Of a stretch of DNA of 64,000 nucleotides, positions 34,878-56,094 are shown one piece after another (positions within the stretch are counted from its first letter, which is position 1; each line of letters starts with the position of its first letter). Both the position numbers and the translations under genes were made by a program. The DNA comes from a bacterium (GTDB lineage: Bacteria > Patescibacteriota > Microgenomatia > UBA10105 > UBA927). The notes below the pieces were generated by a model that saw only the letters and a program-made list of their open reading frames with translations, had not been told where the DNA came from and searched no databases. The stretch spans positions 127-64,126 of the forward strand of contig JAKAFY010000007.1 in NCBI GenBank assembly GCA_021817785.1, given 5' to 3'.

Positions 34878-35174
34878 TTAATTTACCGGTATGGAAAACG
34901 TTGTAACATTGACGCCCGTAAATTGTTGAATGGTAAGTATTATAAGGTACGCAATAGACATAATGGCGAGACCGATGATGGCTTGGGTAATCGTGCCTCG
35001 CGCCGTTTCCAGTTTCTTGGGGTCACCTCCGGAAAACAGAAAATTATATCCGCCCACCAAAAGCATGATAAACAATGCTACCGCCCCTAAGCCGATAACT
35101 GCCCGAACGATTCCTTCAAAAAGGGGGACAAGACATTGAATAGTTGCGGCCCCGTCAATTGCGCAATTGTTCAT
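34878..35174 (-). CDS. VirB2/TrbC-like pilin paralog 1.
   Basis: Two hydrophobic helices flank a conserved core 'GGYNFLFSGGDPKKLETARGTITQAIIGLAIM'. Confidence 0.55.
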   Translation of the reverse strand: MNNCAIDGAATIQCLVPLFEGIVRAVIGLGAVALFIMLLVGGYNFLFSGGDPKKLETARGTITQAIIGLAIMSIAYLIILTIQQFTGVNVTTFSIPVN

Positions 35175-35225
35175 ATGACATCATTATCTCGTATTTCTTC
35201 AGAAGGGACAAGCAATCGATAATGA

Positions 35226-35564
35226 TTAGTATGGTTTCGGGAAGTTTATAGACCCGCCGATGATCTGTACGCCCAGGAAGTTCTGGACGAGCGTCATGAT
35301 GGCCCATGCGGATCCTACGATGATGAGTCCGACAATAGCGTGGGTAATTTTGTTGCGGGCTTCTTCCATGCCGGCTTTATCTCCGCCGGAGGTGATCCAT
35401 TTAATGCCGCCTAAGACAAGGTAGAGAAATGCCAAAAGAGCGGCAATAATCAGTGTTGTGCCGACCAATGCACTAATCAGTTGGCCAAGATCCGTGATCT
35501 TAATCGTGTCCGGCTGTTTCAGATTTAATGATGCCTGTGCGTAAACTGTTTCTATAAGTGCCAT
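35226..35564 (-). CDS. VirB2/TrbC-like pilin paralog 2.
   Basis: Core 'GGIKWITSGGDKAGMEEARNKITHAIVGLIIVGSAWAIMTLV'. N-terminal 'YAQAS'. Confidence 0.55.
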   Translation of the reverse strand: MALIETVYAQASLNLKQPDTIKITDLGQLISALVGTTLIIAALLAFLYLVLGGIKWITSGGDKAGMEEARNKITHAIVGLIIVGSAWAIMTLVQNFLGVQIIGGSINFPKPY

Positions 35565-35676
35565 AGGTTTCCTCCGTCAAATCAATCTTTATTATATCCT
35601 ATACCCCATTCTTGCGCAAATTTGTCGGCCTTGTCAACACCGAGCTTTATCAAGCAGCGACACGGGAAACAAATCG

Positions 35677-36024
35677 CTATTGGCCCATGGTCGGCAGATG
35701 CAAGTTCGGGAAATCGATACCCAAAAATCCGCCCACAAGCGTCATGATTGCCCATATGGCTCCCACGATAATAAGCCCGATAATGGCATTGGTAATCTCA
35801 TCCCGTGCGGCCTGGAGCTTCGCCTTGTCTCCGCCCGAGGTAATCCAGTTAAATCCGCCGAGCAACAGATACATAAATGCGACGACGAACGAAAAAATGA
35901 CAAACGCGCCGATAAAGTTCGAAATAAGGGATCCGATGGCAGATGAGCCGTCCGCGTTGCCGCCGCCACCCAATGAGCTCGGAAGTACCGGGTTGGTTAT
36001 TTGTGCGAGCGCGTGCGTTATCAT
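35677..36024 (-). CDS. VirB2/TrbC-like pilin paralog 3.
   Basis: Core 'GGFNWITSGGDKAKLQAARDEITNAIIGLIIVGAIWAIMTLV'. N-terminal 'HALAQI'. Confidence 0.55.
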   Translation of the reverse strand: MITHALAQITNPVLPSSLGGGGNADGSSAIGSLISNFIGAFVIFSFVVAFMYLLLGGFNWITSGGDKAKLQAARDEITNAIIGLIIVGAIWAIMTLVGGFLGIDFPNLHLPTMGQ

Positions 36025-36029
36025 ATCGG

Positions 36030-36404
36030 TTATTGATTCGGACTAAGCCGGTTAATCAGATCTCCAGGACTGGAAATAGTAAAGTCAACGCCAAAAAATG
36101 TCCCGGCAAGCGCTAATATAGCCCACGCGGCAACCACAACAATAAGCCCGATAAATGCGTTGGTCAGTTTATCGCGGGCGGTTTGCAGCTTTGCCTTATC
36201 GCCGCCGGCGGAAATCCAGCTGAATCCGCCAATCAAAAACTGGATAAGAAACCAAATCCCTGCGGCGATCGTCATGAGGCCAACGACTGAGGAGATTATT
36301 TTTGTTATCCCCATGAGCCCGGAGGTTCCGTCGCTGCTGTTGGCGAATGGCCCGAGGCCTGCGCCACCGATTTGACCGAGCGGTACTTGTGCTAAAGGTT
36401 TCAT
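36030..36404 (-). CDS. VirB2/TrbC-like pilin paralog 4.
   Basis: Core 'GGFSWISAGGDKAKLQTARDKLTNAFIGLIVVVAAWAILALA'. N-terminal 'MKPLAQV'. Confidence 0.55.
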   Translation of the reverse strand: MKPLAQVPLGQIGGAGLGPFANSSDGTSGLMGITKIISSVVGLMTIAAGIWFLIQFLIGGFSWISAGGDKAKLQTARDKLTNAFIGLIVVVAAWAILALAGTFFGVDFTISSPGDLINRLSPNQ

Positions 36405-36405
36405 A

Positions 36406-36759
36406 CTATTGCGGGCCGTAGATTACCGGATTTAGGATCGAGAATCCCGGTCCGAAAATGAGATAGCCAAACAGTGACGCGATGGCAAACGATGCCACCA
36501 TGATGACCAGCCCCATAAGTGACTGCCATATGCGGGACCACGCCTTTTCCAGTTTTTTGCTGTCGCCTCCCGCATTGATGTATTCAAATCCGGCGATGAG
36601 AAAGTTAAATAATGCGTATATGCCAGCCACAACAAACAACAAACGGATAATGTTGGTGATAAACAGCCCAACTCCGCCCAGATTGCCATAGCTGGTGCCC
36701 ATGAGCGGACTCTGAACCGTTCCGAAAATCGGTGCGACGTCTACAGCAAGTACTTTCAT
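36406..36759 (-). CDS. VirB2/TrbC-like pilin paralog 5 (the most divergent).
   Basis: Core 'AGFEYINAGGDSKKLEKAWSRIWQSLMGLVIMVASFAIASLFG'. Confidence 0.5.
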   Translation of the reverse strand: MKVLAVDVAPIFGTVQSPLMGTSYGNLGGVGLFITNIIRLLFVVAGIYALFNFLIAGFEYINAGGDSKKLEKAWSRIWQSLMGLVIMVASFAIASLFGYLIFGPGFSILNPVIYGPQ

Positions 36760-36765
36760 AAAACG

Positions 36766-37074
36766 TTAAAATCCCAGTAATTTTTGACCGGTGATGACAC
36801 TGATAATTTGTACGATCCAAAATGACCCGAATACTACAAGCAATCCGATAACCGCGCCCGTTATCGCGGCTTTGCCCTGTTCCGCTTTTTTGGCGTCGCC
36901 TGCGGCTACTATAACTTGAAAACCGCCGAAAATCAATAAAAAGAAGCTTATAAGACTGGCAAAAACAAACGCATTCCGGACGATTGCGGTGACCAACGGG
37001 CCAAAGGACGTGAGTCCCGGGTTCGGGGCGAGATTTGCAATATCTATAGAGTCCGCAAGCACTTTTTCGATCAT
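36766..37074 (-). CDS. VirB2/TrbC-like pilin paralog 6. The start is placed at the internal Met (MIEKVL...) of the longer 36766..37224 ORF.
   Basis: Core 'GGFQVIVAAGDAKKAEQGKAAITGAVIGLLVVFGSFWIVQII'. The longer ORF would run into the divergent sigma-factor promoter region. Confidence 0.45.
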   Translation of the reverse strand: MIEKVLADSIDIANLAPNPGLTSFGPLVTAIVRNAFVFASLISFFLLIFGGFQVIVAAGDAKKAEQGKAAITGAVIGLLVVFGSFWIVQIISVITGQKLLGF

Positions 37075-37092
37075 GTAGCCAGTGTAGGGAAT

Positions 37093-37674
37093 TTGAGGCG
37101 GGCAGTCAATTATGCTATAGTCATACGTTGTCTCATGGATGATACAACGCTTATCAAACGATTGTTTGCCCACGACCGGAAATCCGTCTCCGCGTTTTAT
37201 CACGAATACGCCCCGCAATTGCACCGATTTATCCTGGGACGCGTTGCATTTTCCCAGGATGCAGAAGAGATTTTACAGGATACCCTGTTTGCATTTTTGG
37301 AAGGCCTTCGGGATTTTCAGGGGAAAAGCAGTATCCGGACATATCTGTTTTCCATTTGTCAGCACAAAATAATCGACTACTATCGCCGGAAGAAAATAAA
37401 GCATCTGGTGTTTTCCCAGGTTCCGCAGCTTGAAATGCTGGTATCTCCGCTGATGGGGCCCGAGGCATCACTCGATGAAAAGCTGGTAAAAGAGAAAATC
37501 CAGAAAGTACTTTCCCGGATTGCCCCTGTATACCGCCAGGTGCTGGTACTCAAATATCTGGAGCAGGTGCCGGTTGAGGAAATTGCCCAAAAACTTTCCA
37601 TATCGTTTAAAAGTGCGGAGTCACGGCTTTTCCGTGCCCGAAAAAATTTCGTGGAGCTGTTTTTGTCTATCTAA
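37093..37674 (+). CDS. RNA polymerase sigma-70 factor, ECF subfamily.
   Basis: Region 2 'LQDTLFAFLEGLRDF...YLFSICQHKIIDYYRRK'. Region 4 'YRQVLVLKYLEQVPVEEIAQKLSISFKSAESRLFRARKNF'. ~190 aa. Confidence 0.85.
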   Translation: MRRAVNYAIVIRCLMDDTTLIKRLFAHDRKSVSAFYHEYAPQLHRFILGRVAFSQDAEEILQDTLFAFLEGLRDFQGKSSIRTYLFSICQHKIIDYYRRKKIKHLVFSQVPQLEMLVSPLMGPEASLDEKLVKEKIQKVLSRIAPVYRQVLVLKYLEQVPVEEIAQKLSISFKSAESRLFRARKNFVELFLSI

Positions 37675-37677
37675 CCT

Positions 37678-37908
37678 ATGAGCAGCATTGCCTATCAGCG
37701 GTTTATGAAACGATGGGAAGAAGTGACGGATTTGCCTCCTCAGTCCCTGGGGCCGCTGACCGGCGTATACAAATGGTGCACGAAACGGTTTAAAGTCATG
37801 CCGTGGCCGTGGTTTATCGGCGTCAGCATCGTCATTGCGATAGGGATATATATCATATTGGGATCCGCCATTTCGTATCTTGTCACGTTGCTCCAGAGGG
37901 GGTTTTAG
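37678..37908 (+). CDS. Small single-TM protein directly downstream of the ECF sigma. Candidate anti-sigma factor.
   Basis: 76 aa with a C-terminal TM 'WPWFIGVSIVIAIGIYIILGSAI'. Four bp downstream of the sigma stop. Its position is the only functional evidence. Confidence 0.3.
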   Translation: MSSIAYQRFMKRWEEVTDLPPQSLGPLTGVYKWCTKRFKVMPWPWFIGVSIVIAIGIYIILGSAISYLVTLLQRGF

Positions 37909-37961
37909 CACTCGCCACCCCGTTCGCGCAGGTTTTATCCACCAATTACGACTACCTAAGT

Positions 37962-38585
37962 ATGGACGTTCTAACGGCGCTCGTCGTGGGGGGGATTGGT
38001 TTCGGCAGGACCGCTATCGGGCTGGTCACGCGGCCCTATGAAACCTATCGCCGGATAGTCAGCTATAGCAGGATTAGTGAGTTGGTGTTTGTCGGGCTTT
38101 TCGCGGGCATCTATTTTGCGTTTGCAAGCATGGTGAAGGGGGCCGCCTTCCGTCCGTTTCTTTTTACGCGCCAATTTATCGTTTTGTATGCGGCGGCTGC
38201 GGGGGGCTACGGTATCGCCATTGGCTCTCTGTGGTTGGCAGGTGTAGTGCTACGGGCCACGTTTCATCTGCGTGCGCTGTTTCTTGCGTGGGGATATACA
38301 TTACTGCCGACGGTTGCATGGTTTTTGGCAACCTCGCTTCTGTATGTGATCCTTCCTCCTCCGCGGACCACCAGCACGCTGGGTATCGCTTTCAGCATAT
38401 TGTTTTTGATATTTAGCGCGACGCTGTTTTGGTGGAAAATGATGCTGTCCTACCTTACGCTCCGTTTTGTGTTTAAATTTGATTTATCCCGCATCGGGAT
38501 GGCAAGTATGATCGTACTTCCGATTATGGCTGCCTATAGCGTACTCATGTACTACTGGGGCATATTTAAAATTCCGTTTTTATGA
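37962..38585 (+). CDS. Hypothetical polytopic membrane protein. The start is taken at the internal Met of ORF 37803..38585.
   Basis: Five or more hydrophobic helices. Its stop overlaps the HMG-CoA reductase start. Confidence 0.3.
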   Translation: MDVLTALVVGGIGFGRTAIGLVTRPYETYRRIVSYSRISELVFVGLFAGIYFAFASMVKGAAFRPFLFTRQFIVLYAAAAGGYGIAIGSLWLAGVVLRATFHLRALFLAWGYTLLPTVAWFLATSLLYVILPPPRTTSTLGIAFSILFLIFSATLFWWKMMLSYLTLRFVFKFDLSRIGMASMIVLPIMAAYSVLMYYWGIFKIPFL

Positions 38586-39748
38586 ACATACGCCAATATA
38601 CAAGTATTGCCGATCGCAGAAACGCGTTAGAAAAAATGACGGGGACATCGTTTTCCCACATCGGATCATATTCGCTGGATGAAAAAACAGCCTCATCCAG
38701 GCATTGTGAAAATATGATTGGGGTGACCCAGGTGCCGATGGGAGTTGCGGGCCCGCTTTATATAACTCATGTATCGGGGAATACCGGTCATGAATATTAT
38801 ATCCCGCTGTCTACGACAGAAGGGGCGTTAGTTGCGTCCGTCAATCGCGGCTGTAAAGCAATTACCGAATGCGGTGGCGCGGTTACAGACAGTCACGCCG
38901 TGGGAGCGACACGGGGACCGGTGTTTAGAGTAAAAAACCTTCAAGAAAGCCGCCGTCTGTATGAATATGTAAAGACGCATAAACGTGCGCTTGAAGAGGT
39001 GGCATCAAAAACGTCGCATCATTTAACGCTCCATAATATATTGACGCGCGGAGTAGGTCGATATCGATATATCCGGTTTGTGTTTGATACGCAGGATGCC
39101 ATGGGAATGAACATGGTCACGATAGCCTCTGAGGCAATCGCTGCATACATAGAGCGAGAAACCGGCATAGCGTGCCTTGCCGTCGCGGGCAATTTTGATA
39201 TTGATAAAAAACCGGCGTGGTTAAACTTTATTGAAAATCGGGGAACAAAAGCATGGGCAGAAGTTACCATCCCGAAGCATATCCTGAAGAACGTGCTTAA
39301 AACGACGGCACGGGACATATATGACGTGTGGCTTGCCAAATGCATGATTGGAAGTGCTATGAGCGGATCCATGGGATTTAATGCGCAGTACGCCAACATC
39401 GTGGCCGCCATGTTTTTGGCAACCGGCCAGGACCTGGGGCATATTGGCGAGGGAAGCATGGGAATAACAACTGCGGAGGTGGTCGATAATCATGATCTGT
39501 ATATCAGCGTGTATCTGCCGGATCTCATGGTGGGCACCGTGGGCGGGGGGACTGCGCTTGCAACACAAGAAGAGGCGCTACGCCTCTTGGGAATTGCCGG
39601 CGGCAAAGACGGGAGTCATGCGGCTGTATTTGCCGAAATTATCGGAGCCGCTGTGTTGGCCGGGGAAATCTCACTGCTCGCGTCCCTTTCTCAGGGGACA
39701 TTGGCAAAAGCCCATGAAGTTTTGGCCCGAGGAGGGAAACGCCCATGA
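38582..39748 (+). CDS. Hydroxymethylglutaryl-CoA reductase (class I-like, archaeal/eukaryotic-type catalytic domain).
   Basis: 'DAMGMNMVT' HMGR signature, plus 'GTVGGGT'. ~388 aa. Confidence 0.85.
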   Translation: MNIRQYTSIADRRNALEKMTGTSFSHIGSYSLDEKTASSRHCENMIGVTQVPMGVAGPLYITHVSGNTGHEYYIPLSTTEGALVASVNRGCKAITECGGAVTDSHAVGATRGPVFRVKNLQESRRLYEYVKTHKRALEEVASKTSHHLTLHNILTRGVGRYRYIRFVFDTQDAMGMNMVTIASEAIAAYIERETGIACLAVAGNFDIDKKPAWLNFIENRGTKAWAEVTIPKHILKNVLKTTARDIYDVWLAKCMIGSAMSGSMGFNAQYANIVAAMFLATGQDLGHIGEGSMGITTAEVVDNHDLYISVYLPDLMVGTVGGGTALATQEEALRLLGIAGGKDGSHAAVFAEIIGAAVLAGEISLLASLSQGTLAKAHEVLARGGKRP

Positions 39749-40788
39749 TCGGTATCGTTTCCTACGGAACATATATCCCGTGGTATCGGCTAAAACTAGC
39801 TGACGTTGCGGCGGTGTGGAAAAAAGATCATCGCGAAATTATCCCGTCACTGGGGGTCGAAGAAAAAGCGGTTCCCGCGTCGGATGAAGACGCCGTAACA
39901 ATTGCCCTAGAAGCGGCACGGCAGAGCCTTACTGATTTTCCCGGGGCGTCGACGGATATCGATGTGTTGTTTGTAGGAAGCGAAAGCCATCCGTATGCGG
40001 TAAACCCCACCTCAACGATTGTGGGCGAGCTGCTTGGCATGGGCCACCATTATTTGGCTGCCGACATGGAATTTGCGTGTAAAGCGGGAACCGCCGGCAT
40101 GGTCGCCATAGCCGGTATGGTTGCTGCAGGACACGCACGGTATGGATTGGCAATTGGTGCCGATACGGCGCAAAGCAAGCCGCATGACGCGCTGGAATAT
40201 ACCTCGGCGGCAGCTGGCGCTGCATATCTTTTGGGAAGCGAACATATCGCCGTGCGGCTCCTTGGAGATACGTCGTATTCTTCTGACACTCCCGATTTTT
40301 GGCGTCGTGACGGAATACGGTATCCCTCACATGCAGGCAGATTTACCGGGGAACCTGCATATTTTACCCACGTGATGGGTGCGGCGACCCGCATGCTGGA
40401 AATGACCAATATGAAACCGTCTGACTTCGATTGGTGCGTATTCCACATGCCAAACGGTAAATTTCCCCGGGCCGCAGCAAAACGGTTAGGGTTCACCGCT
40501 TCCCAGCTTGCGCCGTCGCTTACGGTGGATTCCATAGGGAATCCGTACTCTGCCTCTGCAATGTTGGGGCTAGCTGCGGTGCTTGATGTAGCCAAGCCGG
40601 GCCAGAAGATTTTTATGGTGTCGTATGGGTCCGGTGCCGGAAGCGATGCGTTTGTGTGGGAGACGACGGAAGAGTTAGTCAAACGTCAAAAGGTAAAAGT
40701 AAAAAATAACGCATTGGTACGGCAACAAATCGAGAATAAAACATATATCAGTTATGTTCAATATTTAAAACAGACACACAAAATTTAA
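39745..40788 (+). CDS. Hydroxymethylglutaryl-CoA synthase, archaeal type.
   Basis: 'MIGIVSYGTYIPWYRL' is the typical archaeal-type HMGS N-terminus. Thiolase-fold length ~347 aa. Confidence 0.85.
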   Translation: MIGIVSYGTYIPWYRLKLADVAAVWKKDHREIIPSLGVEEKAVPASDEDAVTIALEAARQSLTDFPGASTDIDVLFVGSESHPYAVNPTSTIVGELLGMGHHYLAADMEFACKAGTAGMVAIAGMVAAGHARYGLAIGADTAQSKPHDALEYTSAAAGAAYLLGSEHIAVRLLGDTSYSSDTPDFWRRDGIRYPSHAGRFTGEPAYFTHVMGAATRMLEMTNMKPSDFDWCVFHMPNGKFPRAAAKRLGFTASQLAPSLTVDSIGNPYSASAMLGLAAVLDVAKPGQKIFMVSYGSGAGSDAFVWETTEELVKRQKVKVKNNALVRQQIENKTYISYVQYLKQTHKI

Positions 40789-40823
40789 AGAATGCAGGGT
40801 GAGAGATGGGGGCTCGTACAGCG

Positions 40824-40862
40824 CTCTAAACTCTAAACTCTAAACTCTAAACTCTAAACTCT
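40824..40862. repeat. Heptanucleotide tandem repeat (CTCTAAA)x5.6 immediately abutting the thiolase start codon.
   Basis: Read directly from the sequence: gcgCTCTAAACTCTAAACTCTAAACTCTAAACTCTAAACTCTatg. Confidence 0.9.
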
Positions 40863-42002
40863 ATGCATATTTATGTAACCGGTGCCGCGACAACAAAATT
40901 TGGAGAGCTATGGAGCGCATCTCCTCGGGGGCTTGCTCGGCAAGCGGTGTTCGGTGCGTTAAAGGATGCCGGGCTTGAAGCGAAACGCGTACAGGCACTT
41001 TTCGTCGGCAACATGCTTTCCGGGATGCTTGGCGGGCAGGAGCACCTGGGAGCATTTTTTGCCGAAGAGCTGGGACTTACGGTTCCTGCTTTTAAAATAG
41101 AAGGCGCGTGTGCGTCCGGCGGGTTGGCCGTACATAATGCGGTTAACAGCCTCTTAAGCGGTCAGTATGAGACGGTCGTCGTGCTCGGCATAGAAAAAAT
41201 GACAGATCATAAACCTGAGGACGTCGCAACGGCGTTAATGGGTGCAGGAAGCGAAGATGAGCGGTTGGCCGGCGCTACGTTTCCCGGACTCTATGCCATG
41301 ATAGCGAGGGCACATATGCAACAGTTTGGCACGACAGAAGAAGACATGGCAGCAGTTGCGGTTAAAAATCATTATCATGCGACGCTTAACCCCAACGCAC
41401 AGTTCCATGCCGAAATAACCGTCGAAGCGGTTATGAAAAGCAGTAAAATTGCGGACCCCTTAAAATTATTGGACTGTTCGCCTATTTCGGACGGGGCCGC
41501 AGCTATTGTGCTGAGTACAAAACGATCTCCCCACAGCGTCGAGGTCGCAGCATCCGTGGTTGCAACTGATACATTGGGACTTGCACAGAGAAAAAGCCTT
41601 ACGCAACTTGCCGCAACGAAGCAAGCTGCGCAAAAAGCCTATACATTGGCCGGGATACTCCCCGAAGACGTCGACGCCTCCGAAGTTCATGATTGTTTTA
41701 CTATTGCAGAAATACTAGCCGCGGAAGACCTGGGTTTTTTTGCAAAAGGGAACGCGGCAGCGGCGATTAGGAAAGGGAAAACAACACTGGGTACATCAAC
41801 GGGTGTTGTCTTAAATCCCTCCGGAGGACTCAAGGGGTGCGGACATCCCGTGGGGGCCACAGGAGTGAAGCAAATCGCCGAATTGGTAGAACAACTGCGC
41901 GGAAACGCCGGGAAACGACAAGTACACGATGCCCGGGTGGGATTGGCACACAATGTCGGCGGTAGCGGAGCGACAGCGGTTATACATATTTTAAAAACAT
42001 AA
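40863..42002 (+). CDS. Acetyl-CoA acetyltransferase (thiolase), archaeal-type. Partner of HMGS/DUF35.
   Basis: 'MHIYVTGAATTKFGE' N-terminus. Catalytic-Cys context 'EGACASGG'. C-terminal 'GHPVGATG'. Confidence 0.85.
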   Translation: MHIYVTGAATTKFGELWSASPRGLARQAVFGALKDAGLEAKRVQALFVGNMLSGMLGGQEHLGAFFAEELGLTVPAFKIEGACASGGLAVHNAVNSLLSGQYETVVVLGIEKMTDHKPEDVATALMGAGSEDERLAGATFPGLYAMIARAHMQQFGTTEEDMAAVAVKNHYHATLNPNAQFHAEITVEAVMKSSKIADPLKLLDCSPISDGAAAIVLSTKRSPHSVEVAASVVATDTLGLAQRKSLTQLAATKQAAQKAYTLAGILPEDVDASEVHDCFTIAEILAAEDLGFFAKGNAAAAIRKGKTTLGTSTGVVLNPSGGLKGCGHPVGATGVKQIAELVEQLRGNAGKRQVHDARVGLAHNVGGSGATAVIHILKT

Positions 42003-42120
42003 TATGCCAGGTAGTAGAGTTTCGACACGCTATTTTCATTGCGCATCGAATAGATTACCTGAACATATAGAATAGGTATGAAAAGAAAGGAGATCGAAAT
42101 TTTCACCGCGTAAAAACGCA

Positions 42121-42444
42121 ATGGTCGAAATTTCACTACCTGGTATGCAAAGTCCGGTCAAAATTTGGCGGAATCAGAAGAATATTGCGCAACTTCTCGG
42201 GAAAACCGGAACAATCGTTTCGTGGACGCTCATCCGCGTGCCGCCCGGCGACTTTATGGACCAGGCACCGTACCCTGTGGTATTAGCGGAGTTAGAAGAC
42301 GGAAAACGCATAGAGGCGCAATTGGTGGATTGGAAAGACACACATCTTGCATTCGGTACAAAGGTAAAAACAGTTATCCGCTGCGTCATGCGTCCGGATG
42401 CTGATGGAGTGATACCCTATGGCATAAAAGTGAAACCCATTTAG
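42121..42444 (+). CDS. DUF35 OB-fold protein (scaffold of the thiolase/HMG-CoA synthase complex).
   Basis: 107-aa OB-fold-type sequence directly downstream of the thiolase, as in archaeal operons. 'VSWTLIRVPPG...VVLAELEDGKRIEAQL'. Confidence 0.55.
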   Translation: MVEISLPGMQSPVKIWRNQKNIAQLLGKTGTIVSWTLIRVPPGDFMDQAPYPVVLAELEDGKRIEAQLVDWKDTHLAFGTKVKTVIRCVMRPDADGVIPYGIKVKPI

Positions 42445-42479
42445 GGTTTCATCCCGAGTTTATCGCAGGATCTTACTTT

Positions 42480-43421
42480 ATGAAAAAAGTTACCGTTTCC
42501 GTTCCGGGAAAAATCCATCTCATGGGCGAACATGCCGTCGTGTATGGCAAGCCGGCATTGTTATCTGCTATAGATTTGCGGCTTTCTGTATCCATAGAGC
42601 CTTCCGAAACCTTTGAAATTATTTCCAGTGAGCCAACGGATCATGCGAAGTATGCCGTAGATTTTTTGTTAGACCACATGAAAGTAAAAAAGGATCCATT
42701 GGTGAAAATTACGATCGAATCGGAAATTCCCGCAGGGTTTCACCTCGGCTCCTCCGCGGCGGTCGCCGTAGGGTTATCCGGAGCGATGACATATTTTTTC
42801 AAAAACTTATGGAACCCCATACGGATCAATGAATTGGCGTATCAAATCGAAAAAAAGCAGCACGGCAACCCATCCGGCGGTGATAACACGACCATAACCA
42901 TGGGCGGATTTATCTGGTTCCGGAAGGAATTGGAATTTTTGAAAAGCATCTGGCAGCTTCCATTTAAACCCCACCCGTCGCTTAACCATTTTTTCCTTAT
43001 CAAAACCAAACGCCCATCCGAAACGACCGGAGAAATGGTGGCGCTCGTACGTGCGCGATACACAAAAGAACAAAAGAAAATGGAAGCGCTTTTCAATCGT
43101 AATGAAACTCAGGTGAAGCGGGTGGCTGTTGCCCTGAAAGAGGGAAATGAAAAGGAACTCCTCGACGCGATTCAGGTAGGCGAGTCAACCCTGGAGGGTA
43201 TGGGGGTGGTAAGCCAAATAGTGCAGTCGCTTATTCGTGAAATTGAAAAGAGCGGGGGTGCGGCAAAAATATTAGGAGGCGGGGGAGTGAAAGACGGAGT
43301 AGGGTTTTTATTGTGCTACCATCATGAACCAAAGCGCATCGCTGCATTGTGTAAAGCGCATGAATACACAACGCAATCAATTATTCTTGGCGAAGAAGGG
43401 ATTCGTCTGGAACAACGATGA
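42480..43421 (+). CDS. Mevalonate kinase (GHMP kinase).
   Basis: 'PGKIHLMGEHAVVYGKPAL' plus the GHMP ATP motif 'GFHLGSSAAVAVG'. Confidence 0.75.
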   Translation: MKKVTVSVPGKIHLMGEHAVVYGKPALLSAIDLRLSVSIEPSETFEIISSEPTDHAKYAVDFLLDHMKVKKDPLVKITIESEIPAGFHLGSSAAVAVGLSGAMTYFFKNLWNPIRINELAYQIEKKQHGNPSGGDNTTITMGGFIWFRKELEFLKSIWQLPFKPHPSLNHFFLIKTKRPSETTGEMVALVRARYTKEQKKMEALFNRNETQVKRVAVALKEGNEKELLDAIQVGESTLEGMGVVSQIVQSLIREIEKSGGAAKILGGGGVKDGVGFLLCYHHEPKRIAALCKAHEYTTQSIILGEEGIRLEQR

Positions 43422-44887
43422 ACATTACCGTCTCAGCTCCGGGAAAACTTATGATATTTGGCGAGCACGCCGTCGTGTATGACCGGCCGTGTCTGGTGAC
43501 CGCGGTTGATCAGCGCATGCGGGCCACGGTCGAACTTACAGATGATAACGCATTTCATCTCGATGCTCCCGAGGTCAATGTCTCGGGGTATAAGCGGCCG
43601 ATGACAGAGTTAGGAACAGGGGATATACCCAAAGGCGCAAAATTTGTGGAAATCGCAGTCAAAAATTTTATTGAAAAATATCCTTTTTCCTCCGGAATAC
43701 AGATCGTCACCGCTTCAGATTTTTCTTCCCTATTCGGATTCGGGTCGTCGTCTGCTTCAACAGTGTGTGTGCTGAAAGCACTCTCGGAGCTTACCGGAAA
43801 AATACTGGACAACAAGGCGTTATTTGACCTCGCCTACAAAACCGTGTTGGATGTGCAGGGAAAAGGATCCGGATTTGATGTGGCAGCGGCAATCTACGGC
43901 GGGACACTCTATTTTGTAACGGGAGGAAACATCATAGAGCCCTTGCAGGTTGACACGATGCCGCTCGTAATCGGATACACCGGGGTAAAAGCAGACACGG
44001 TAACGCTCATGACGGCTGTTGCAGAAAAAATGAAGGCGCAGCCGGAACGGGTGGGCAGGATTTATGACGCGATTGCCAAACTTACGGAAGAGGCAAAAAC
44101 AAAACTATTGGAAGGAGACTGGGAACGGGTAGGAAGACTTATGGACTTTAACCAGGATTATCTTCGTGATGTGGGAGTCAGCTCGGAAATCTTAGAAGCA
44201 CTTATATCGGCAGCAAAGTCGGCCGGAGCGTTTGGCGCGAAATTGTCAGGAGCAGGGGGAGGGGATTGTATGATTTCCGTAACGCCGGACCACAGCAGGC
44301 CGAACGTGGAAGCGGCGATTGAAGCGGCTGGTGGACAAGTTATCCACATAGCAGCAAATGCCCCCGGCGTGCGCGTTGAGACCGATGACCAAAACGAACT
44401 ATTTGTCGTTGTCGACGAAAACGATCATGTCGTGGGACATAAAACGCGTCAGGAATGCAATCATAATCCGGCCCTGATTCACCGGGCGGTTGAATTACTG
44501 ATTTTTGATTCACACGGACGGGTCTTGTTGCAGAAACGCAGCATGACCAAAGATACGCGGCCGGGCTTTTGGTCAACGTCTGTTGGTGGACACGTCGGAA
44601 AAGATGAATCATATGAAACGGCGATGCGGCGGGAACTTCAGGAAGAATTGGGAATACAGATTCCTATTGTCTACGTCAGTAAACAAATCGTGCATTTTAC
44701 AGAGGAAACTGAGATGGAAGCATTATTTACGGCCACATACGACGGACCATTCCACACCAATCCGCAGGAAATGGATGAGGTAAAATTTTTTGATAAACGG
44801 GAAATTGTATTCGGACTCGCAACAAATAAACTCCAGCTGACAGAAGCGGCACTGCAAAATCTGAAAACGATGGGAGTATTGTCATGA
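43418..44887 (+). CDS. Fusion protein: N-terminal GHMP kinase (phosphomevalonate-kinase-like) fused to a C-terminal type-1 (Nudix) isopentenyl-diphosphate isomerase.
   Basis: N-terminus 'PGKLMIFGEHAVVYDRPCL' and 'GFGSSSASTV' (GHMP). C-terminus 'HRAVELLIFDSHGRVLLQKRS...WSTSVGGHVGKDESYETAMRRELQEELGI' (Nudix/IDI-1 box). Confidence 0.7.
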   Translation: MNITVSAPGKLMIFGEHAVVYDRPCLVTAVDQRMRATVELTDDNAFHLDAPEVNVSGYKRPMTELGTGDIPKGAKFVEIAVKNFIEKYPFSSGIQIVTASDFSSLFGFGSSSASTVCVLKALSELTGKILDNKALFDLAYKTVLDVQGKGSGFDVAAAIYGGTLYFVTGGNIIEPLQVDTMPLVIGYTGVKADTVTLMTAVAEKMKAQPERVGRIYDAIAKLTEEAKTKLLEGDWERVGRLMDFNQDYLRDVGVSSEILEALISAAKSAGAFGAKLSGAGGGDCMISVTPDHSRPNVEAAIEAAGGQVIHIAANAPGVRVETDDQNELFVVVDENDHVVGHKTRQECNHNPALIHRAVELLIFDSHGRVLLQKRSMTKDTRPGFWSTSVGGHVGKDESYETAMRRELQEELGIQIPIVYVSKQIVHFTEETEMEALFTATYDGPFHTNPQEMDEVKFFDKREIVFGLATNKLQLTEAALQNLKTMGVLS

Positions 44888-45864
44888 AAGCAACGGCTGT
44901 GGCTCCCGCAAACATAGCATTTATTAAATATTGGGGCAGGACCGATGCGGCGCTACGTTTGCCGGCAAACGCGTCTATATCCATGAACCTGTCCGCATCT
45001 ATTACTACGACGACGGTGGAATTTTCTGATGCATTGTCCCAAGACACTATCGAATTATTAGAGCCGGGAGGGTTTAGTGAGAAAGAAATACGGCGCGTTG
45101 TACGTCAGTTAGATGTTGTACGAAACAAAGCGCGTACTCGGGTATTTGCCCGTGTGGCGACCAAAAATACATTTCCGAAATCAACGGGTGCCGCATCTTC
45201 GGCATCCGGATTTGCAGCGCTTACGGTTGCTGCCGCGTCTGCCCTAGGATTATCCCTATCGGAAAAAGAGTTGACCATTCTTGCGCGCGTGGGGAGCGGG
45301 TCTGCCTGCAGGAGTATTCCGGATGGATTTGTAAAATGGGAGGGGGGAGATAGTGCGTCATCATTCGCCCACTCCCTGTATCCTGCTTCATACTGGGATA
45401 TTCGTGATGTTTTGGCGATTGTCGGCAGTACCGGAAAAGATGTTTCTTCAACTGCCGGTCACGATTCTGTGCGTACCAGCCCATATTTTTTACGCAGATT
45501 AGACGCAGTAGCCGGAAGAATCACGCGTATAGAACAGGCACTGAAGGATAAAAATTTTCAGATGCTCGGAACGGTTATTGAAGAAGATTGTCTGGATATG
45601 CATCACGTGATGCAGACCCAGGTGCCGCCGCTTCTCTATTGGAGTGACGCCACACGCATGCTTATGGACGCGGTCCGGAATTGGCGCACAAACGGAATTC
45701 CCGTATACTTTACCATTGATGCCGGTCCGAATGTGCACCTTATTTGCGAAGGGAAGGATGAGGACAGGGTTCTTGACGCTATAAAAGCCGTAAGCGGGGT
45801 AGAAAATGTGATTTTAAACAAGCCAGCGGGGGGCGCAAGAATTAGTACCAAACACCTATTTTAG
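44884..45864 (+). CDS. Diphosphomevalonate decarboxylase.
   Basis: 'APANIAFIKYWGR' MVD N-terminal signature. 'GSGSACRS'. ~326 aa. Confidence 0.85.
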   Translation: MKATAVAPANIAFIKYWGRTDAALRLPANASISMNLSASITTTTVEFSDALSQDTIELLEPGGFSEKEIRRVVRQLDVVRNKARTRVFARVATKNTFPKSTGAASSASGFAALTVAAASALGLSLSEKELTILARVGSGSACRSIPDGFVKWEGGDSASSFAHSLYPASYWDIRDVLAIVGSTGKDVSSTAGHDSVRTSPYFLRRLDAVAGRITRIEQALKDKNFQMLGTVIEEDCLDMHHVMQTQVPPLLYWSDATRMLMDAVRNWRTNGIPVYFTIDAGPNVHLICEGKDEDRVLDAIKAVSGVENVILNKPAGGARISTKHLF

Positions 45865-45898
45865 GTGATCTAGGATACCTAGGTTACCTAAGTGACCT

Positions 45899-46582
45899 AT
45901 GAAAAAGATAAACATACCTCAGCATATAGCCATCATCATGGATGGAAACCGTCGCTGGGCCAAAGAACACGGTTTATCCGTGCTCGCGGGGCATCAGAAG
46001 GTCGCAGATGAGGTGTTGGAGCCATTAGTGGAGCATGCGGCCGTCCGCGGGGTTCACTATCTAACGTTTTGGGCATTTTCTACGGAAAACTGGAAGCGGA
46101 ATGCCGCAGAAGTCGAAGGTATCATGCGGATTTTCCGCCACGTCATCCGTAAGCGGTGGGCAAGGTTGCATGAAAAAGGCGTGCGGGTGCGGGTCATCGG
46201 GGACGTATCAAAATTCGCTCCCGATATACAGGAATCTCTCCGAAAAGTAACAGAACAAACAAAAGATAACAAAAAAATTACAGCGGTATTCGCGTTAAAT
46301 TACGGAGGGCGAAATGAAATTCTCCGTGCCATACAACAGATCGCACATCCGGAAGCACTTACGGAAGAAGATTTTTCCGGACTTCTCGATACGTCCGGCA
46401 TACCGGATCCGGATTTGATTATCAGAACGAGCGGGGAACAGCGATTATCCGGATTTTTGCCCTGGCAGGGGGTGTATAGCGAATTATATTTTCCGCCGTT
46501 TCATATGCCGGATTTCACACCGGAACGGTTAGATGAAGCGATACTGGAATACCAACAGCGGCAGCGCCGGTTTGGAAAATAG
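45899..46582 (+). CDS. uppS: Undecaprenyl diphosphate synthase (cis-prenyltransferase).
   Basis: 'HIAIIMDGNRRWAKE' and 'YLTFWAFSTENWKR' cis-IPPS motifs. Confidence 0.9.
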   Translation: MKKINIPQHIAIIMDGNRRWAKEHGLSVLAGHQKVADEVLEPLVEHAAVRGVHYLTFWAFSTENWKRNAAEVEGIMRIFRHVIRKRWARLHEKGVRVRVIGDVSKFAPDIQESLRKVTEQTKDNKKITAVFALNYGGRNEILRAIQQIAHPEALTEEDFSGLLDTSGIPDPDLIIRTSGEQRLSGFLPWQGVYSELYFPPFHMPDFTPERLDEAILEYQQRQRRFGK

Positions 46583-46918
46583 TTATTGGCCGAAGATCGC
46601 GCCAATGCTGCTTTGCCAGCCGAAGATTATCCCTGCAATCTGCACGATCCAGAACGCGGCGAATATGATAAGGAATCCAATGATCGCATTGGTCAGAGTA
46701 GCCTTTCCCTTTTCCATTTTTTTTGGGTCCCCGGCTGAGGTCATAAGCGTAAATCCGCTTGCGATAATCATCAGAAGGAGTCCTATCCCGGCAAATCCGA
46801 AGATGTATGAAAGCGACTGGCCGATGATGGTTCCGATAGTGGCATTTGCAAACGCAAAATTTTGTGGTCCCTGGATAGTATAATCACCAATAGAAAAAGA
46901 TTGCGCGAGTAATTTCAT
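46583..46918 (-). CDS. VirB2/TrbC-like pilin paralog 7 (remote copy).
   Basis: Core 'SGFTLMTSAGDPKKMEKGKATLTNAIIGFLIIFAAFWIVQIAG'. N-terminal 'MKLLAQS'. Confidence 0.5.
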   Translation of the reverse strand: MKLLAQSFSIGDYTIQGPQNFAFANATIGTIIGQSLSYIFGFAGIGLLLMIIASGFTLMTSAGDPKKMEKGKATLTNAIIGFLIIFAAFWIVQIAGIIFGWQSSIGAIFGQ

Positions 46919-47418
46919 AGCCCAGATTTCCCCCCGCCAAATCCCGGCAGAGTTAATATGTCAACTCCGATGAGTTTGAGGAGAAATACCGAAAAAATGA
47001 TAAGAAGCAATCCGGAAATTGCAGCAGTCATAAGTTCTTTGGCGGCGTGCAGCTTTTCCGGATTGCCGGTACTGGTAATTGTCTGAAATCCTGAAAATAA
47101 AATAAGCAAAAACGCAACACCGCCCCCTATGCTCGTACCAATTTGGATAAACGACTGAAGAAAGTCGTTGAGTGATGAACCCGTGCCGCCGCCTCTACCA
47201 AGACAGCCCACCGCGGTCCACGCGCCGCCCGAGTTAAAACAGCCAGTGCAATCGCTTTGAGCGGATCCAGAGAGAGATTTACACGTATTTTGGCCCACCG
47301 AGGTTGGAGCGTCCGCCAAAACATTTAAAGCAGTAAATGTCTCATGCATGGCAGGCAAGCCCAAAAAAAGGCCCAAGCTGAAAAAAAATAAATATAGCGA
47401 CAGAACAGCCCGTTTCAT
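46915..47418 (-). CDS. Pilin-like protein with a signal peptide and a Cys-rich N-terminal extension (paralog 8; possible minor/tip pilin). The start is taken at the internal Met (MKRAVL...) of ORF 46915..47496.
   Basis: Signal peptide 'MKRAVLSLYLFFFSLGLFLGLPAM'. Four Cys in 'CKSLSGSAQSDCTGCFNSGGAWTAVGC'. C-terminal core 'SGFQTITSTGNPEKLHAAKELMTAAISGLLLIIF'. Confidence 0.45.
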   Translation of the reverse strand: MKRAVLSLYLFFFSLGLFLGLPAMHETFTALNVLADAPTSVGQNTCKSLSGSAQSDCTGCFNSGGAWTAVGCLGRGGGTGSSLNDFLQSFIQIGTSIGGGVAFLLILFSGFQTITSTGNPEKLHAAKELMTAAISGLLLIIFSVFLLKLIGVDILTLPGFGGGKSGL

Positions 47419-47507
47419 GTGCTTTAAGTGTAGCAAATTTGACAGGATAAGAAAAGAAGCCCGAGGACCCTCAGGTGATTGTTTGGTCTGGTACAATGGA
47501 ATGACTC

Positions 47508-49250
47508 ATGAAGTATTTCCGCCTGTTTAGTATTGGTATATTCCTCCTGTTCGTTGCGTTTACCGGCGCATCATACGTTCACGCACAAGAATGCGATCCG
47601 TCATGTGGCGATCCTGGTGAATGTACTCAAAAAATGGCTGTTTGCCAAAAGTCATTGGACATGATGAGCAATGCAGTTGCACCACACATAGAAGCACTTA
47701 AGAAAATGGAAGCTGATTTAGCATCGTTTCAGCTAAAATTACAGAGTATCCAGGCCGATTTGGCCCGAGAAGCAATAGCCATCGCATTAGGAGAGAAGGA
47801 AATGAGTCAATTGTTAGAGTTAGCATATAGACGAGTTGGTGTTCTATATAGAAGAACAGTGACGTATAATCCACTACTTCCATTTTTGACATCAACAAAC
47901 GTAGGTTCAGTTCTCCGGGCATTCACCTACCAACAAGCCGTTATTAATGATGATAAAAAAGCAATTGTTCAAACGGCTCTTTCTCTAAAAGATTTAGGTG
48001 ATCGTAAAACTAAACTTGAGCAGCAGCAAACCACCTTTATCGCATTAAAAGCAGACACCGATGCGCGCGCCGCAAAGGTTCGAAAATTGGTTGCAGATGC
48101 AACCGCATATGAAAATAAGCTTTCAGGCATTATCGCAACTTTGTCTGCAAAGCAACAATCCTTCTTGGCTCAAAAACTTGCGGGATTAGGCATCCCGCTG
48201 TTTGCCATAAGCGGCGGGGGGTGTTCGAGTGATCTGACCAATGGGAAAAACCCCGGGTTCTCCGGCGGATTCGGATTTTTCAGCTACGGCGTGCCCAACC
48301 GCGTAGGACTTAACCAATACGGAGCCTGGGGTAGGGCAAAAGCAGGACAGGATTATGAAACGATTCTGCGCGCGTACTATAACTTTGATTCGATAGACGG
48401 CGTGGATACGGGCACCCAAATAAAAGTGGACGGCTATGGGAATTATTCGCTTGAGGATTATGTAAAGCGCGTGTACGAGGTGCCGGACTCCTGGGCGGAT
48501 AATAATCTTGCCGCGCTCAAAGCACAAGCTATAGCCGTCAGAAGCTATGTTCTGGCATACACCAACAACGGACAGGGATCGATCTGCACGACCCAGCAAT
48601 GCCAGGTGTTTCAGCCCAACCCAAAAGGAGGCAACTGGGATGCGGCCGTCAATGCCACGGCGGGGAAAGTCATGCGGCAGGGTGGGCAGCCCATCAAGGC
48701 ATATTTTTCTTCAACACACGGCGGATATATTTATAGCACCGGAGATTTGCAGGGGTGGTCGTCAACGCCGTATACCAAGCGCGGAATTGATGCGAGCGGG
48801 CCAATAAACAGCTTTGCGGACTTGCAAAGCAAAGCATATGACCGGGATAGTCCATGGTTCTATTGTGATTGGGGAGGGAGAAGCCAGTATGGCGGTACCG
48901 CGTGGTTAAAACCCGACGAAGTCGCAGACATCGTCAATGTACTGCTTTTAGCCAAGCAGGATAGCTCCGCACAAAACCACCTTACCCAGACGGATAAACC
49001 CAATCCCGACGGAACGGACACATGGGATGCATCCACAGTGCGAGCTAAATTGGGAAGCCTTGCCTATACTTCCATATCAAGTATTTCCGTGAGTGCGGAT
49101 TTCAGCACCGGAAGAACCACCTCTGTATCCGTGTCCGGGGACGGGAAAAGCAACACCTTTGACGGCAACGACTTTAAAACATATTTCAACCTGCGGGCGC
49201 CTGCCAATATTCAGATCGTCGGTCCACTCTATAACGTTGAAAGAAAATAG
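47508..49250 (+). CDS. SpoIID/LytB-family protein (peptidoglycan lytic transglycosylase/amidase enhancer-like) with an N-terminal coiled-coil region.
   Basis: 'LKAQAIAVRSYVLAYT' and 'AYFSSTHGGY' SpoIID motifs. N-terminal signal/TM and coiled coil. Confidence 0.65.
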   Translation: MKYFRLFSIGIFLLFVAFTGASYVHAQECDPSCGDPGECTQKMAVCQKSLDMMSNAVAPHIEALKKMEADLASFQLKLQSIQADLAREAIAIALGEKEMSQLLELAYRRVGVLYRRTVTYNPLLPFLTSTNVGSVLRAFTYQQAVINDDKKAIVQTALSLKDLGDRKTKLEQQQTTFIALKADTDARAAKVRKLVADATAYENKLSGIIATLSAKQQSFLAQKLAGLGIPLFAISGGGCSSDLTNGKNPGFSGGFGFFSYGVPNRVGLNQYGAWGRAKAGQDYETILRAYYNFDSIDGVDTGTQIKVDGYGNYSLEDYVKRVYEVPDSWADNNLAALKAQAIAVRSYVLAYTNNGQGSICTTQQCQVFQPNPKGGNWDAAVNATAGKVMRQGGQPIKAYFSSTHGGYIYSTGDLQGWSSTPYTKRGIDASGPINSFADLQSKAYDRDSPWFYCDWGGRSQYGGTAWLKPDEVADIVNVLLLAKQDSSAQNHLTQTDKPNPDGTDTWDASTVRAKLGSLAYTSISSISVSADFSTGRTTSVSVSGDGKSNTFDGNDFKTYFNLRAPANIQIVGPLYNVERK

Positions 49251-52465: not shown

Positions 52466-52594
52466 GAAGGCCCGCCACATCTTACTTTGCGACTATTCAG
52501 TATTGTTCGTACACGTCGCAAAGAGCGATGGTTGGCGGACGTAAGAAACAGTAGCGCGTTCCGGTAGGAATCGGAACGGACAACTGTTTCTAAC

Positions 52595-53026: not shown

Positions 53027-53147
53027 CTCCGCCCCGATAAAAATATCGGGGCTTCGCGTGGCAAGCCACATTAGACATCTGGGTGACCTTGTTTTTTGTG
53101 CGGAGTGTGTCCCGCGTAGTCCCATATTGAAGGGACGTAGTGGGACA

Positions 53148-54831: not shown

Positions 54832-54832
54832 C

Positions 54833-55465: not shown

Positions 55466-55486
55466 AATGATATAATGTGCTCATCT

Positions 55487-55571: not shown

Positions 55572-55637
55572 ATACAGGAAAACCTCTTGACAGATTAGCA
55601 CTCTGTGTATTAGACTGCTAATTGTAACAGAAGGGAG

Positions 55638-56075: not shown

Positions 56076-56094
56076 CGAAACAAGAGATGTATAT

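Follow-up and report, generated by a model that had tools for sequence, protein, structure and literature searches.

A stretch of 64,000 nucleotides of bacterial DNA (GenBank assembly GCA_021817785.1, contig JAKAFY010000007.1, positions 127 to 64,126 of the forward strand; called the window in what follows) carries eight genes that very likely form an isoprenoid-precursor operon of the kind typical of Microgenomates, a group within the candidate phyla radiation (CPR), with the enzymatic steps assigned by homology. An earlier, sequence-only reading had placed eight plus-strand genes of the mevalonate (MVA) pathway at 38582-46582, and all of them are there:

38582-39748, plus strand: HMGR, class I hydroxymethylglutaryl-CoA (HMG-CoA) reductase (PF00368, 392 bits)
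39745-40788, plus strand: HMGS, archaeal-type HMG-CoA synthase (TIGR00748)
40863-42002, plus strand: archaeal-type acetoacetyl-CoA thiolase (NF004720)
42145-42444, plus strand: DUF35 scaffold-like protein of 99 residues, with the PF01796 OB domain only; the longest open reading frame (ORF) starts at 42121
42480-43421, plus strand: mevalonate kinase (MVK), the first GHMP kinase (TIGR00549)
43418-44380, plus strand: second GHMP kinase domain, derived from MVK (TIGR00549), probably a phosphomevalonate kinase (PMK)
44372-44887, plus strand: Nudix domain resembling isopentenyl-diphosphate isomerase (IDI), the C-terminal part of the second-kinase polypeptide; not a canonical type 1 IDI
44884-45864, plus strand: decarboxylase of the mevalonate diphosphate decarboxylase (MDD) family (TIGR01240)
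45899-46582, plus strand: UppS, undecaprenyl-diphosphate (cis-prenyl) synthase (PF01255, TIGR00055)

Three pairs of genes overlap by 4 nucleotides (HMGR/HMGS at 39745-39748, MVK/second kinase at 43418-43421 and second kinase/decarboxylase at 44884-44887) and the other intergenic gaps measure 34-142 nucleotides, and it is this overlapping or close spacing that argues for an operon. A scan of 36700-47600 for promoters and terminators returned 15 promoter-like sites, with 14.5 expected, and terminator-like sites that lay mostly on the wrong strand or within genes.

Protein families were assigned with Pfam and NCBIfam models at their curated cut-offs, solved relatives were sought among all structures in the PDB, and related loci (numbered here with the prefix L) were compared as 20-kb stretches around matches to HMGS or to the Nudix domain. 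The 13 closest genomic relatives (L006-L018), metagenome-assembled genomes (MAGs) of Candidatus Gottesmanbacteria or Patescibacteria, have an HMGS 64-84% identical to that of the window and conserve the neighbourhood from a sigma factor gene upstream through a SpoIID gene downstream. An identical HMGS with the same neighbours is found in the MAG GCA_027424485.1 and in several metagenome contigs. The bacterial host that had been proposed is borne out, and belongs to Candidatus Gottesmanbacteria in the Microgenomates group of Patescibacteria (CPR). Titles of database records proved misleading at several of these loci: the CPR contigs L008, L014-L016 and L018 are labelled "uncultured Gammaproteobacteria", and Methanomassiliicoccales-like HMGS-thiolase-DUF35 genes stand under the names of gut bacteria (Dialister, Prevotella, Bacteroides and others) in L037, L039, L055, L058, L059, L061, L066 and L068.

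Judged by homology, the thiolase and the archaeal-type HMGS would condense three acetyl-CoA to HMG-CoA, in a complex for which the small DUF35 OB-fold protein probably serves as scaffold, as it does in Methanothermococcus, though here without a zinc ribbon. The class I HMGR would convert HMG-CoA to mevalonate, the first GHMP kinase would make mevalonate 5-phosphate, the second, MVK-derived kinase would most likely add the second phosphate, and the MDD-family enzyme would decarboxylate the product to isopentenyl diphosphate (IPP), from which UppS would build the C55 lipid carrier for cell-wall synthesis. The weakest step is that of the Nudix domain, a relative of IPP isomerases without their catalytic residues, which could be either an atypical isomerase or a phosphatase of C5 diphosphates.

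As regards the genes it contains, their archaeal affinity and the link to uppS, the operon adds nothing to what had been published by 2018; the only leads worth following are the DUF35 protein without its ribbon, the atypical Nudix domain and the exchange of whole cassettes at the locus. A near-complete mevalonate pathway was described in Peribacteria by Anantharaman et al. 2016, the pathway being rare in bacteria outside the CPR (PMC4736985). Hoshino & Gaucher 2018 reported the MVA gene set in Microgenomates, where the majority of members carry it; the CPR sequences lie near the archaeal ones yet form a clade of their own, the MVA genes are syntenic with a cis-prenyl synthase gene (cis-IPPS) in CPR and not in other bacteria, and the alternative methylerythritol phosphate (MEP) pathway is sparse in CPR (PMC6107057). 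An interpretation that traces the pathway to LUCA (the last universal common ancestor) has been disputed in favour of transfer (PMC11052028). The operon studied here belongs with the CPR clusters of PMC6107057, sharing the archaeal thiolase (AACT), HMGS, class I HMGR (HMGR-I), MVK, a second kinase called PMVK, the decarboxylase (DPMD) and an IDI-I-like protein; as there, the early enzymes are of archaeal affinity and the genes are syntenic with cis-IPPS (uppS). It differs in a DUF35 protein without zinc ribbon, in an "IDI-I" that is fused and devoid of catalytic residues, and in having no isopentenyl phosphate kinase (IPK) gene in the operon; the words "DUF35" and "fusion" occur nowhere in that paper. 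The operons of Gram-positive cocci (mvaS, mvaA/mvaE, mvaK1, mvaD, mvaK2, fni) also lead from acetyl-CoA to IPP with GHMP kinases and an MDD-family decarboxylase, but they employ the bacterial mvaS, a class II HMGR, a thiolase II and a type 2 IDI, and have neither DUF35 nor a link to uppS.

The early enzymes point clearly to the archaeal type. HMGR had been called class I-like for its DAMGMNM motif, and rightly so: the motif is present and the closest solved relative is an archaeal class I enzyme (6hr7, 352 bits, with 245-250 bits for the plant and human enzymes). With the class I model TIGR00533 it scores 411, just under the cut-off of 442, compared to 58 with the class II model. Its motifs TTEGALVAS, DKKPA, TGQD and the C-terminal AKAH align with those of 6hr7 and the plant enzyme. 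Both the domain and the motifs are those of class I, and the Glu, Lys, Asp and His of the active site, placed by the numbering of the human enzyme, are present. HMGS passes TIGR00748, the archaeal model (422, cut-off 353), and NF003274 (471, cut-off 244) and fails the bacterial mvaS model TIGR01835 (122, cut-off 360), with GSESHPY, EFACKAGT and CVFHMPNG conserved and the catalytic Glu, Cys and His of the archaeal clade in place. The thiolase is of the PRK06064 type (NF004720 468, cut-off 420) and shows the ACASG, EVHDCF (HDxF) and CGH motifs of archaeal SCP-x-like thiolases.

Each member of the proposed archaeal-type trio of thiolase, HMGS and DUF35 has a different chain of one archaeal complex, 6ESQ/6ET9, as its best solved relative (HMGS 6esq_I, 351 bits; thiolase 6esq_A, 317 bits; DUF35 6esq_E, 44 bits), and the order HMGS-thiolase-DUF35 is shared with about 60 archaeal loci fetched by HMGS similarity, which together uphold the trio. 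Bacterial HMGS/ACAT/DUF35 Friedel-Crafts complexes that descend from the archaeal complex do exist (PMC12960953), and the three genes might on that precedent encode a PhlABC/MucABC-type acyltransferase repurposed for secondary metabolism instead of the entry into the mevalonate pathway. We consider this extremely improbable, given that HMGS scores only 202-205 bits against PhlA (and 76 against the bacterial mvaS 1x9e), the thiolase scores only 79-86 against PhlC and has retained HDxF, a motif missing from PhlC and MucB (PMC12960953), and the trio is flanked by HMGR on one side and the mevalonate kinases on the other.

The DUF35 protein is the first of the three leads. Its described architecture consists of an N-terminal helix, a rubredoxin-like zinc ribbon and an OB fold (PMC6996347). 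The protein of the window matches PF01796 alone, and its residues 16-99 align to 47-128 of 6esq_E, so that the scaffold protein that had been proposed stands as regards the helix (VKIWRNQK, where 6esq_E has VRSWRHMK) and the OB fold, while the ribbon of about 30 residues is lacking. No CxxC motif occurs in the DUF35 proteins of the 13 Gottesmanbacteria loci or in any of 120 database relatives (97-117 residues), whereas, of the archaeal loci and two Chloroflexi loci with an intact DUF35, nearly all have two CxxC motifs. Absence from 13 of 13 loci and from all 120 relatives marks this as a trait of the lineage and not an error of assembly. The start at 42145, giving 99 residues, is the probable one since alignments with homologues begin only at residue 9 of the long ORF, and the 107-residue version starting at 42121 was rejected on the same ground. 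Compared with the Methanothermococcus thermolithotrophicus complex (Vogeli et al. 2018, cited after PMC6996347), the window agrees in chain matches, gene order and catalytic motifs and differs in a DUF35 of 99 residues, helix and OB fold only, where the archaeal one has 130. A natural DUF35 of this kind tests which part of the scaffold the thiolase/HMGS complex requires.

The archaeal character of the trio had been read as a sign of ancient shared ancestry or of horizontal acquisition. After the Gottesmanbacteria, the next-best HMGS matches are indeed archaeal (Methanomassiliicoccales, Methanonatronarchaeales, Micrarchaeota, Bathyarchaeota), and the gene order of the trio is that of archaeal loci, as a recent transfer of the operon from an archaeon would have it. 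We built neighbour-joining trees of HMGS and thiolase from the 80 best loci only. In these, Gottesmanbacteria are monophyletic (14 of 14 for HMGS, 13 of 13 for thiolase) with no archaeon nested inside, and their sister is an unclassified bacterial MAG, L071, likewise with an MVA cluster. Within the lineage HMGS identity is 64-84%; beyond it there is a single drop to 50-54%, uniform across all sampled archaea and with no specific donor. This evenness together with the monophyly argues against a recent transfer. Several further observations run the same way: the late genes (second kinase and MDD) and the linkage to uppS are not archaeal features (PMC6107057), the operon has the GC content of its neighbouring genes, and the loss of the zinc ribbon is specific to the lineage and common to all its members. 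A recent acquisition is thus very unlikely; ancient transfer and shared ancestry are not separated by these trees.

A different kind of change becomes apparent when the position of the operon is followed through related genomes. Upstream, the operon is preceded by three genes:

37093-37674, plus strand: ECF-type sigma factor (Sigma70_r2 and r4_2 domains), the conserved upstream neighbour of the cassette slot
37678-37908, plus strand: conserved ORF of 76 residues, between the sigma gene and the membrane protein gene, with no family match
37962-38585, plus strand: Yip1-like membrane protein of 207 residues (weak Yip1 match, 18 bits, under the cut-off)

The sigma factor is syntenic in L006-L018 (53-80% identity) and is also present at loci of the MEP and IPK types described below, and the 76-residue ORF is called as a gene in the identical contigs L001-L003 and in L092-L097. 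The stop of the Yip1-like gene overlaps the start of HMGR by 4 nucleotides. This gene lies upstream of every cassette type, which makes it a part of the slot and not of the MVA pathway; its homologue in L092/L093 has PF04893. A longer reading of it, at 260 residues, was rejected because it overlaps the conserved 76-residue gene and the conserved form has 207. Downstream follow pilin genes, SpoIID, a bPH_2 protein, SmpB and tmRNA.

Alternative cassettes came to light at the loci of free-standing relatives of the Nudix domain, which like that of the window lack the catalytic cysteine of IDI (Cys-less Nudix below). Other Gottesmanbacteria have the same flanks (identities of 54% for the sigma factor, 54% for the Yip1-like protein, 58% for UppS, 53% for SpoIID and 70% for SmpB) around different contents. 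For instance, L092/L093 (GCA_001003305.1 LCOS01000004.1, 1468-11274) has an MEP cassette in the slot between the Yip1-like gene and uppS, made up of IspH, YjbQ, IspD, IspF, IspE, IspG, Dxr, a canonical IDI (139.9 with NF002995, cut-off 127), an IPK (192, cut-off 120), a 248-residue protein and a Cys-less Nudix; Dxs was not found in the 20-kb stretch compared. This suggests that MVA and MEP genes are alternatives at one site. A similar picture emerges for L094 (1719-8187) and L096 (2236-8265), where minimal IPK cassettes occupy the same slot in the order trans-prenyl synthase, sigma factor, 76-residue ORF, membrane protein, one or two additional proteins of which at least one is Nudix-like, IPK, MVK-like protein, Cys-less Nudix and UppS. 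Neither locus has MVA or MEP genes, L096 is without a canonical IDI, and the cassette may be a salvage set for isopentenyl phosphate. A third variant is found in L017 (12238-14823; Gottesmanbacteria RBG_16_52_11), which is of the MVA type with a free-standing canonical IDI (145.1 with the same model) between DUF35 and MVK, and from which the second kinase, the decarboxylase and the Cys-less Nudix are absent.

The MEP and IPK loci also encode MVK-like proteins of 247-293 residues that appear to be dead (L093:9250-9996, L094:6254-6997 and L096:6123-7004). They are intact ORFs and homologues of the MVK of the window (E 1e-19 to 1e-22; L093 and L094 are 64.5% identical), devoid of the PGK...GEH, GSSAA, HGNPSGGD and GGGG motifs and matched by no GHMP model. 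By these features they are relics or pseudoenzymes that mark former MVA cassettes, and the presence of such a relic in loci that are not of the MVA type suggests that the MVA cassette was ancestral at the slot and has more than once given way to MEP genes or been pared down to an IPK set. Whether the bacterial MVA pathway is ancestral or acquired has been debated in the absence of any dated, directional case of pathway replacement, and MVA, MEP and IPK cassettes at one conserved locus would, if this is true, provide one.

Within the MVA-type operon, the two GHMP kinases are the first place where family models fall short. Both pass the MVK model TIGR00549 (172 for the first and 196 for the second, cut-off 163), so that this model alone cannot discriminate between them, and public annotation names both "mevalonate kinase". 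The first has the motif HGNPSGGDN, its leading PDB matches are all mevalonate kinases, and no MVA-type locus that extends to its position is without it (11 complete, one truncated by a contig end). The second is overall nearer to archaeal mevalonate kinases (207 bits to 6mde in a profile search) and stays under the cut-offs of the PMK models (TIGR01220 93.8, cut-off 165.7; TIGR01219 34.8, cut-off 377; NF040957 81.6, cut-off 500). These models nevertheless favour the second over the first by 30-47 bits (TIGR01220, 93.8 compared to 52.1; NF040957, 81.6 compared to 34.4), and the ERG8 model TIGR01219 matches the second kinase only, over residues 108-179, which span the P-loop and the GSGFDVAAA region. 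That motif is near-invariant among 104 homologues, and we take it to resemble that of yeast ERG8. Second kinase and decarboxylase are also jointly absent from L017, as would fit two enzymes that work as a pair. From the lead with the PMK models, the sole ERG8 match and the joint absence, the second kinase is read as probably a phosphomevalonate kinase, an assignment by sequence that agrees with that of Hoshino & Gaucher.

The arrangement of these genes varies among relatives. The kinase-Nudix fusion is split in L008, L009, L012, L013 and L014, and an 812-residue protein, P0081, joins second kinase, Nudix and decarboxylase, as either a triple fusion or a merge made in gene calling. Between the two kinase genes, L011 (13502-14305) and L012 (13426-14238) carry a gene for a class I SAM-dependent methyltransferase.

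The decarboxylase had been called a diphosphomevalonate decarboxylase (DMD). Membership of the MDD family holds, with TIGR01240 at 260 (cut-off 171) and the catalytic Asp conserved in YFTIDAGPNVH, but the residues that determine the substrate give a mixed signature of the diphosphomevalonate and phosphomevalonate types. The best solved relative, at 268 bits compared to 212 for the best true MDD, is 6n0x from Anaerolinea thermophila, identified as a phosphomevalonate decarboxylase (PMD; PMC9254496). The two types are told apart by the Lys of DMD and the His of PMD (PMC11052028). The engineered variant 6n0z differs from the wild type at exactly the two determinant positions (N to K, H to M), and where DMDs have Lys/Met and PMDs Asn/His, the protein of the window has Arg (YWGR) and His (STAGH). 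Related Gottesmanbacteria have K/M, K/H, R/H, R/M or R/Q. In L018 (14900-15877), the decarboxylase has Asn in place of the catalytic Asp (YFTVNTGQDIH) and Gln at the Met/His determinant.

These observations raise the possibility of a route as in Chloroflexi and haloarchaea, where MVK would make mevalonate 5-phosphate, a PMD would turn it into isopentenyl phosphate, and an IPK encoded elsewhere, or the second GHMP kinase, would yield IPP. The nearest structure and the His where MDDs have Met would suit this route, as would the IPK genes that occupy the same slot in related genomes; and if the second kinase acted on isopentenyl phosphate, the fusion with an IDI-like domain would couple two successive steps. 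However, Arg stands at the first determinant, which gives it the basic character of the DMD Lys and sets it apart from Asn, and the DMD type looks ancestral, with Met in 6 of 9 related Gottesmanbacteria decarboxylases and Lys plus Met in 5 of them. The haloarchaeal PMD model NF040704 is far from being reached (161, cut-off 475) where TIGR01240 is passed, the second kinase has the ERG8-like region, and there is no IPK in the window or in any MVA-type locus. The Chloroflexi pathway (Anaerolinea/Roseiflexus PMD plus IPK) does resemble the operon in its closest decarboxylase, in the His and, in the Chloroflexi loci L065 and L079, in the HMGS-thiolase-DUF35 trio; the differences are the second GHMP kinase of the window, the basic residue of its decarboxylase at the Lys position and the lack of an IPK from its operon, while Chloroflexi DUF35 retains its ribbon. 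We therefore judge the PMD route unlikely. The basic first residue and the presence of the second kinase favour the classical route through diphosphomevalonate, and the decarboxylase may by its residues have dual or phospho-specific activity.

The domain at the end of the second kinase is where the proposed route is weakest. The sequence-only reading had taken the polypeptide for a GHMP-kinase/IDI fusion, and the IDI label is not supported, the Nudix domain (C-terminal 170 residues) being under both IDI cut-offs (NF002995 88.6, cut-off 127; TIGR02150 71, cut-off 105.8), without the catalytic Cys, Tyr and Trp, and in possession of a full hydrolase box. Cys67, Tyr104 and Trp161 (E. coli numbering) are the catalytic residues of type 1 IDI. 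Aligned to the Salmonella and human IDIs, the domain has Gly at the position of Cys67, and none of 224 relatives (104 fused, 120 free-standing) has Cys there, the residue being Ala, Gly, Ser or Thr instead. Where IDI has Tyr104 and Trp161, the domain of the window has Val and Ala, and the 120 free-standing relatives vary. The Nudix box GX5EX7REUXEEXGU is matched exactly (GHVGKDESYETAMRRELQEELGI), as in a Nudix pyrophosphohydrolase, and its core R-E-x-x-E-E is invariant in 104 fused relatives; among the free-standing ones, E-x-x-E-E is present in 120 of 120 and the Arg in 118. The box is taken as defined in PMC5389931, according to which IDIs are without one.

Structure prediction does not decide the matter. 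The AlphaFold model (pLDDT 95.3) superposes on YfcD, human IDI1/2, DR0079 and E. coli IDI with TM-scores of 0.76-0.84, and such near-equal matches mean that an isomerase and a hydrolase cannot be told apart by the predicted fold. In sequence as in predicted fold, the best solved relative is E. coli YfcD, a putative hydrolase. Equivalents of the IDI metal ligands H25, H32, H69, E114 and E116 are invariant or nearly so across the relatives; in the window, Asn stands at the H25 position and His at the next. The domain thus shares with E. coli Idi and YfcD the fold subgroup, the metal ligands of IDI, the diphosphate-binding Arg and Lys and a YfcD-like hydrolase box, differing from Idi in the three missing catalytic residues and in its fusion to a kinase, and from YfcD in keeping the His and Glu metal site.

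That the domain is an atypical isomerase has, in our estimation, slightly less than an even chance. A hydrolase of IPP, DMAPP (dimethylallyl diphosphate) or a related prenyl diphosphate, with the true isomerase, if any, encoded elsewhere, is a serious possibility that we would nevertheless not bet on, and a small chance is left for some other function. The exact box with its conserved core, a Cys67 position that is never Cys, the variable Tyr104 and Trp161 positions and the kinship with YfcD all speak for such a hydrolase, and in the MEP-type L093 the Nudix coexists with a canonical IDI and an IPK. Against a hydrolase stand the five retained metal ligands of IDI and the way in which, among MVA-type operons, the Nudix and a canonical IDI take each other's place (in L017 the IDI is present and the Nudix missing). 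In the minimal cassette of L096 the Nudix is the sole IDI-like protein, and hydrolysis of IPP there would undo the work of the IPK in a futile pairing; moreover, Hoshino & Gaucher report only IDI-I, sparse IDI-II and frequent synteny of IPK with IDI-I in CPR (PMC6107057).

We tentatively propose, and would call it a minority expectation, that the Cys-less Nudix is a distinct enzyme family and that the site upstream of uppS is a place of replaceable cassettes, both of them unreported. Members of such a family may isomerise IPP with no need of the canonical Cys, Tyr and Trp, or they may be C5-prenyl-diphosphate phosphatases that, paired with GHMP or IPK kinases, make up a kinase/phosphatase control module. 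The Cys-less Nudix is fused to the second kinase in at least 104 protein clusters and is also found free-standing beside uppS in other genomes. In Woesebacteria L090/L091 (P0169), a free-standing copy overlaps the start of an MDD-like gene and is followed by guanylate kinase and another Nudix gene, with no further MVA genes nearby. With the Nudix named "IPP isomerase" or just "NUDIX" and the second kinase "mevalonate kinase", automated calls of the last steps of the pathway are unreliable in CPR genomes. The other Nudix gene of the window, at 56819-57316, was considered as an IDI and rejected as MutT-like.

UppS (PF01255 250 bits; TIGR00055 233, cut-off 110) closes the cassette in every related locus that reaches it, whatever the cassette type, and its place in the operon is therefore as had been claimed. 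The description of the pathway as "complete" is not confirmed as written, since family scans found no canonical IDI, no trans-prenyl (farnesyl diphosphate, FPP) synthase and no IPK in the window. MEP genes were not found among the roughly 58 ORFs scanned in the window. Several points weigh against the reading of the operon given above. With the Nudix domain under the IDI cut-offs and lacking the IDI catalytic residues, the step from IPP to DMAPP is unaccounted for in the window, and an FPP synthase is missing there too; neither kinase reaches a PMK cut-off, and in profile searches each ranks closest to mevalonate kinases; the nearest relative of the decarboxylase is a characterised phosphomevalonate decarboxylase, with which it has the His in common; and the DUF35 protein has lost one of its two domains, which makes formation of the complex less certain than in archaea.

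The UppS product had also been linked to adjacent envelope-glycan machinery. A cluster of glycan genes is present:

54-16757: glycan genes, comprising two Wzy_C proteins, GT4 transferases, an AsnB-like protein, an epimerase, a split Alg14/Alg13 pair and an RGP-family protein

It lies about 22 kb away from the operon, however, and is separated from it by dnaA/dnaN (16817-19471), VirB4-, PrgI- and VirD4-like genes of type-IV-secretion character, a 1206-residue ORF and pilin arrays, so that adjacency does not hold. Within the cluster, 15741-16757 on the minus strand encodes a protein that strongly matches the Pfam family "Reversibly glycosylated polypeptide" (PF03214, E 1e-50). GC content steps up from 0.41-0.45 over the glycan genes (1-16 kb) to 0.48-0.52, and the cumulative GC skew has its minimum at about 14-18 kb, by dnaA/dnaN; the replication origin is probably near these genes, with a glycan island of lower GC beside it.

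The type-IV-secretion-like set (19473-28949, 34878-37224 and 46583-47496, including the pilins) comprises an M23 peptidase, a VirB4/TraG-like ATPase, a PrgI-like protein and a VirD4-like coupling protein. Eight small pilin-type genes bracket the operon, seven with a PF18895 match and one judged by eye. Flanks with PF18895 arrays of type IV secretion system (T4SS) pilins, an ECF sigma factor and SpoIID are what we regard as typical of CPR genomes. Further downstream, at 52022-53027, smpB is directly followed by the tmRNA gene (52595-53027, 104 bits) and then by a GIY-YIG gene, in an order that is the same in related loci. Seven tRNA genes, five of them for tRNA-Ser, lie within 9 kb at 54746-63949, and for one of these (56159-56243) ARAGORN gives the anticodon ACT, seemingly unusual for a tRNA-Ser.

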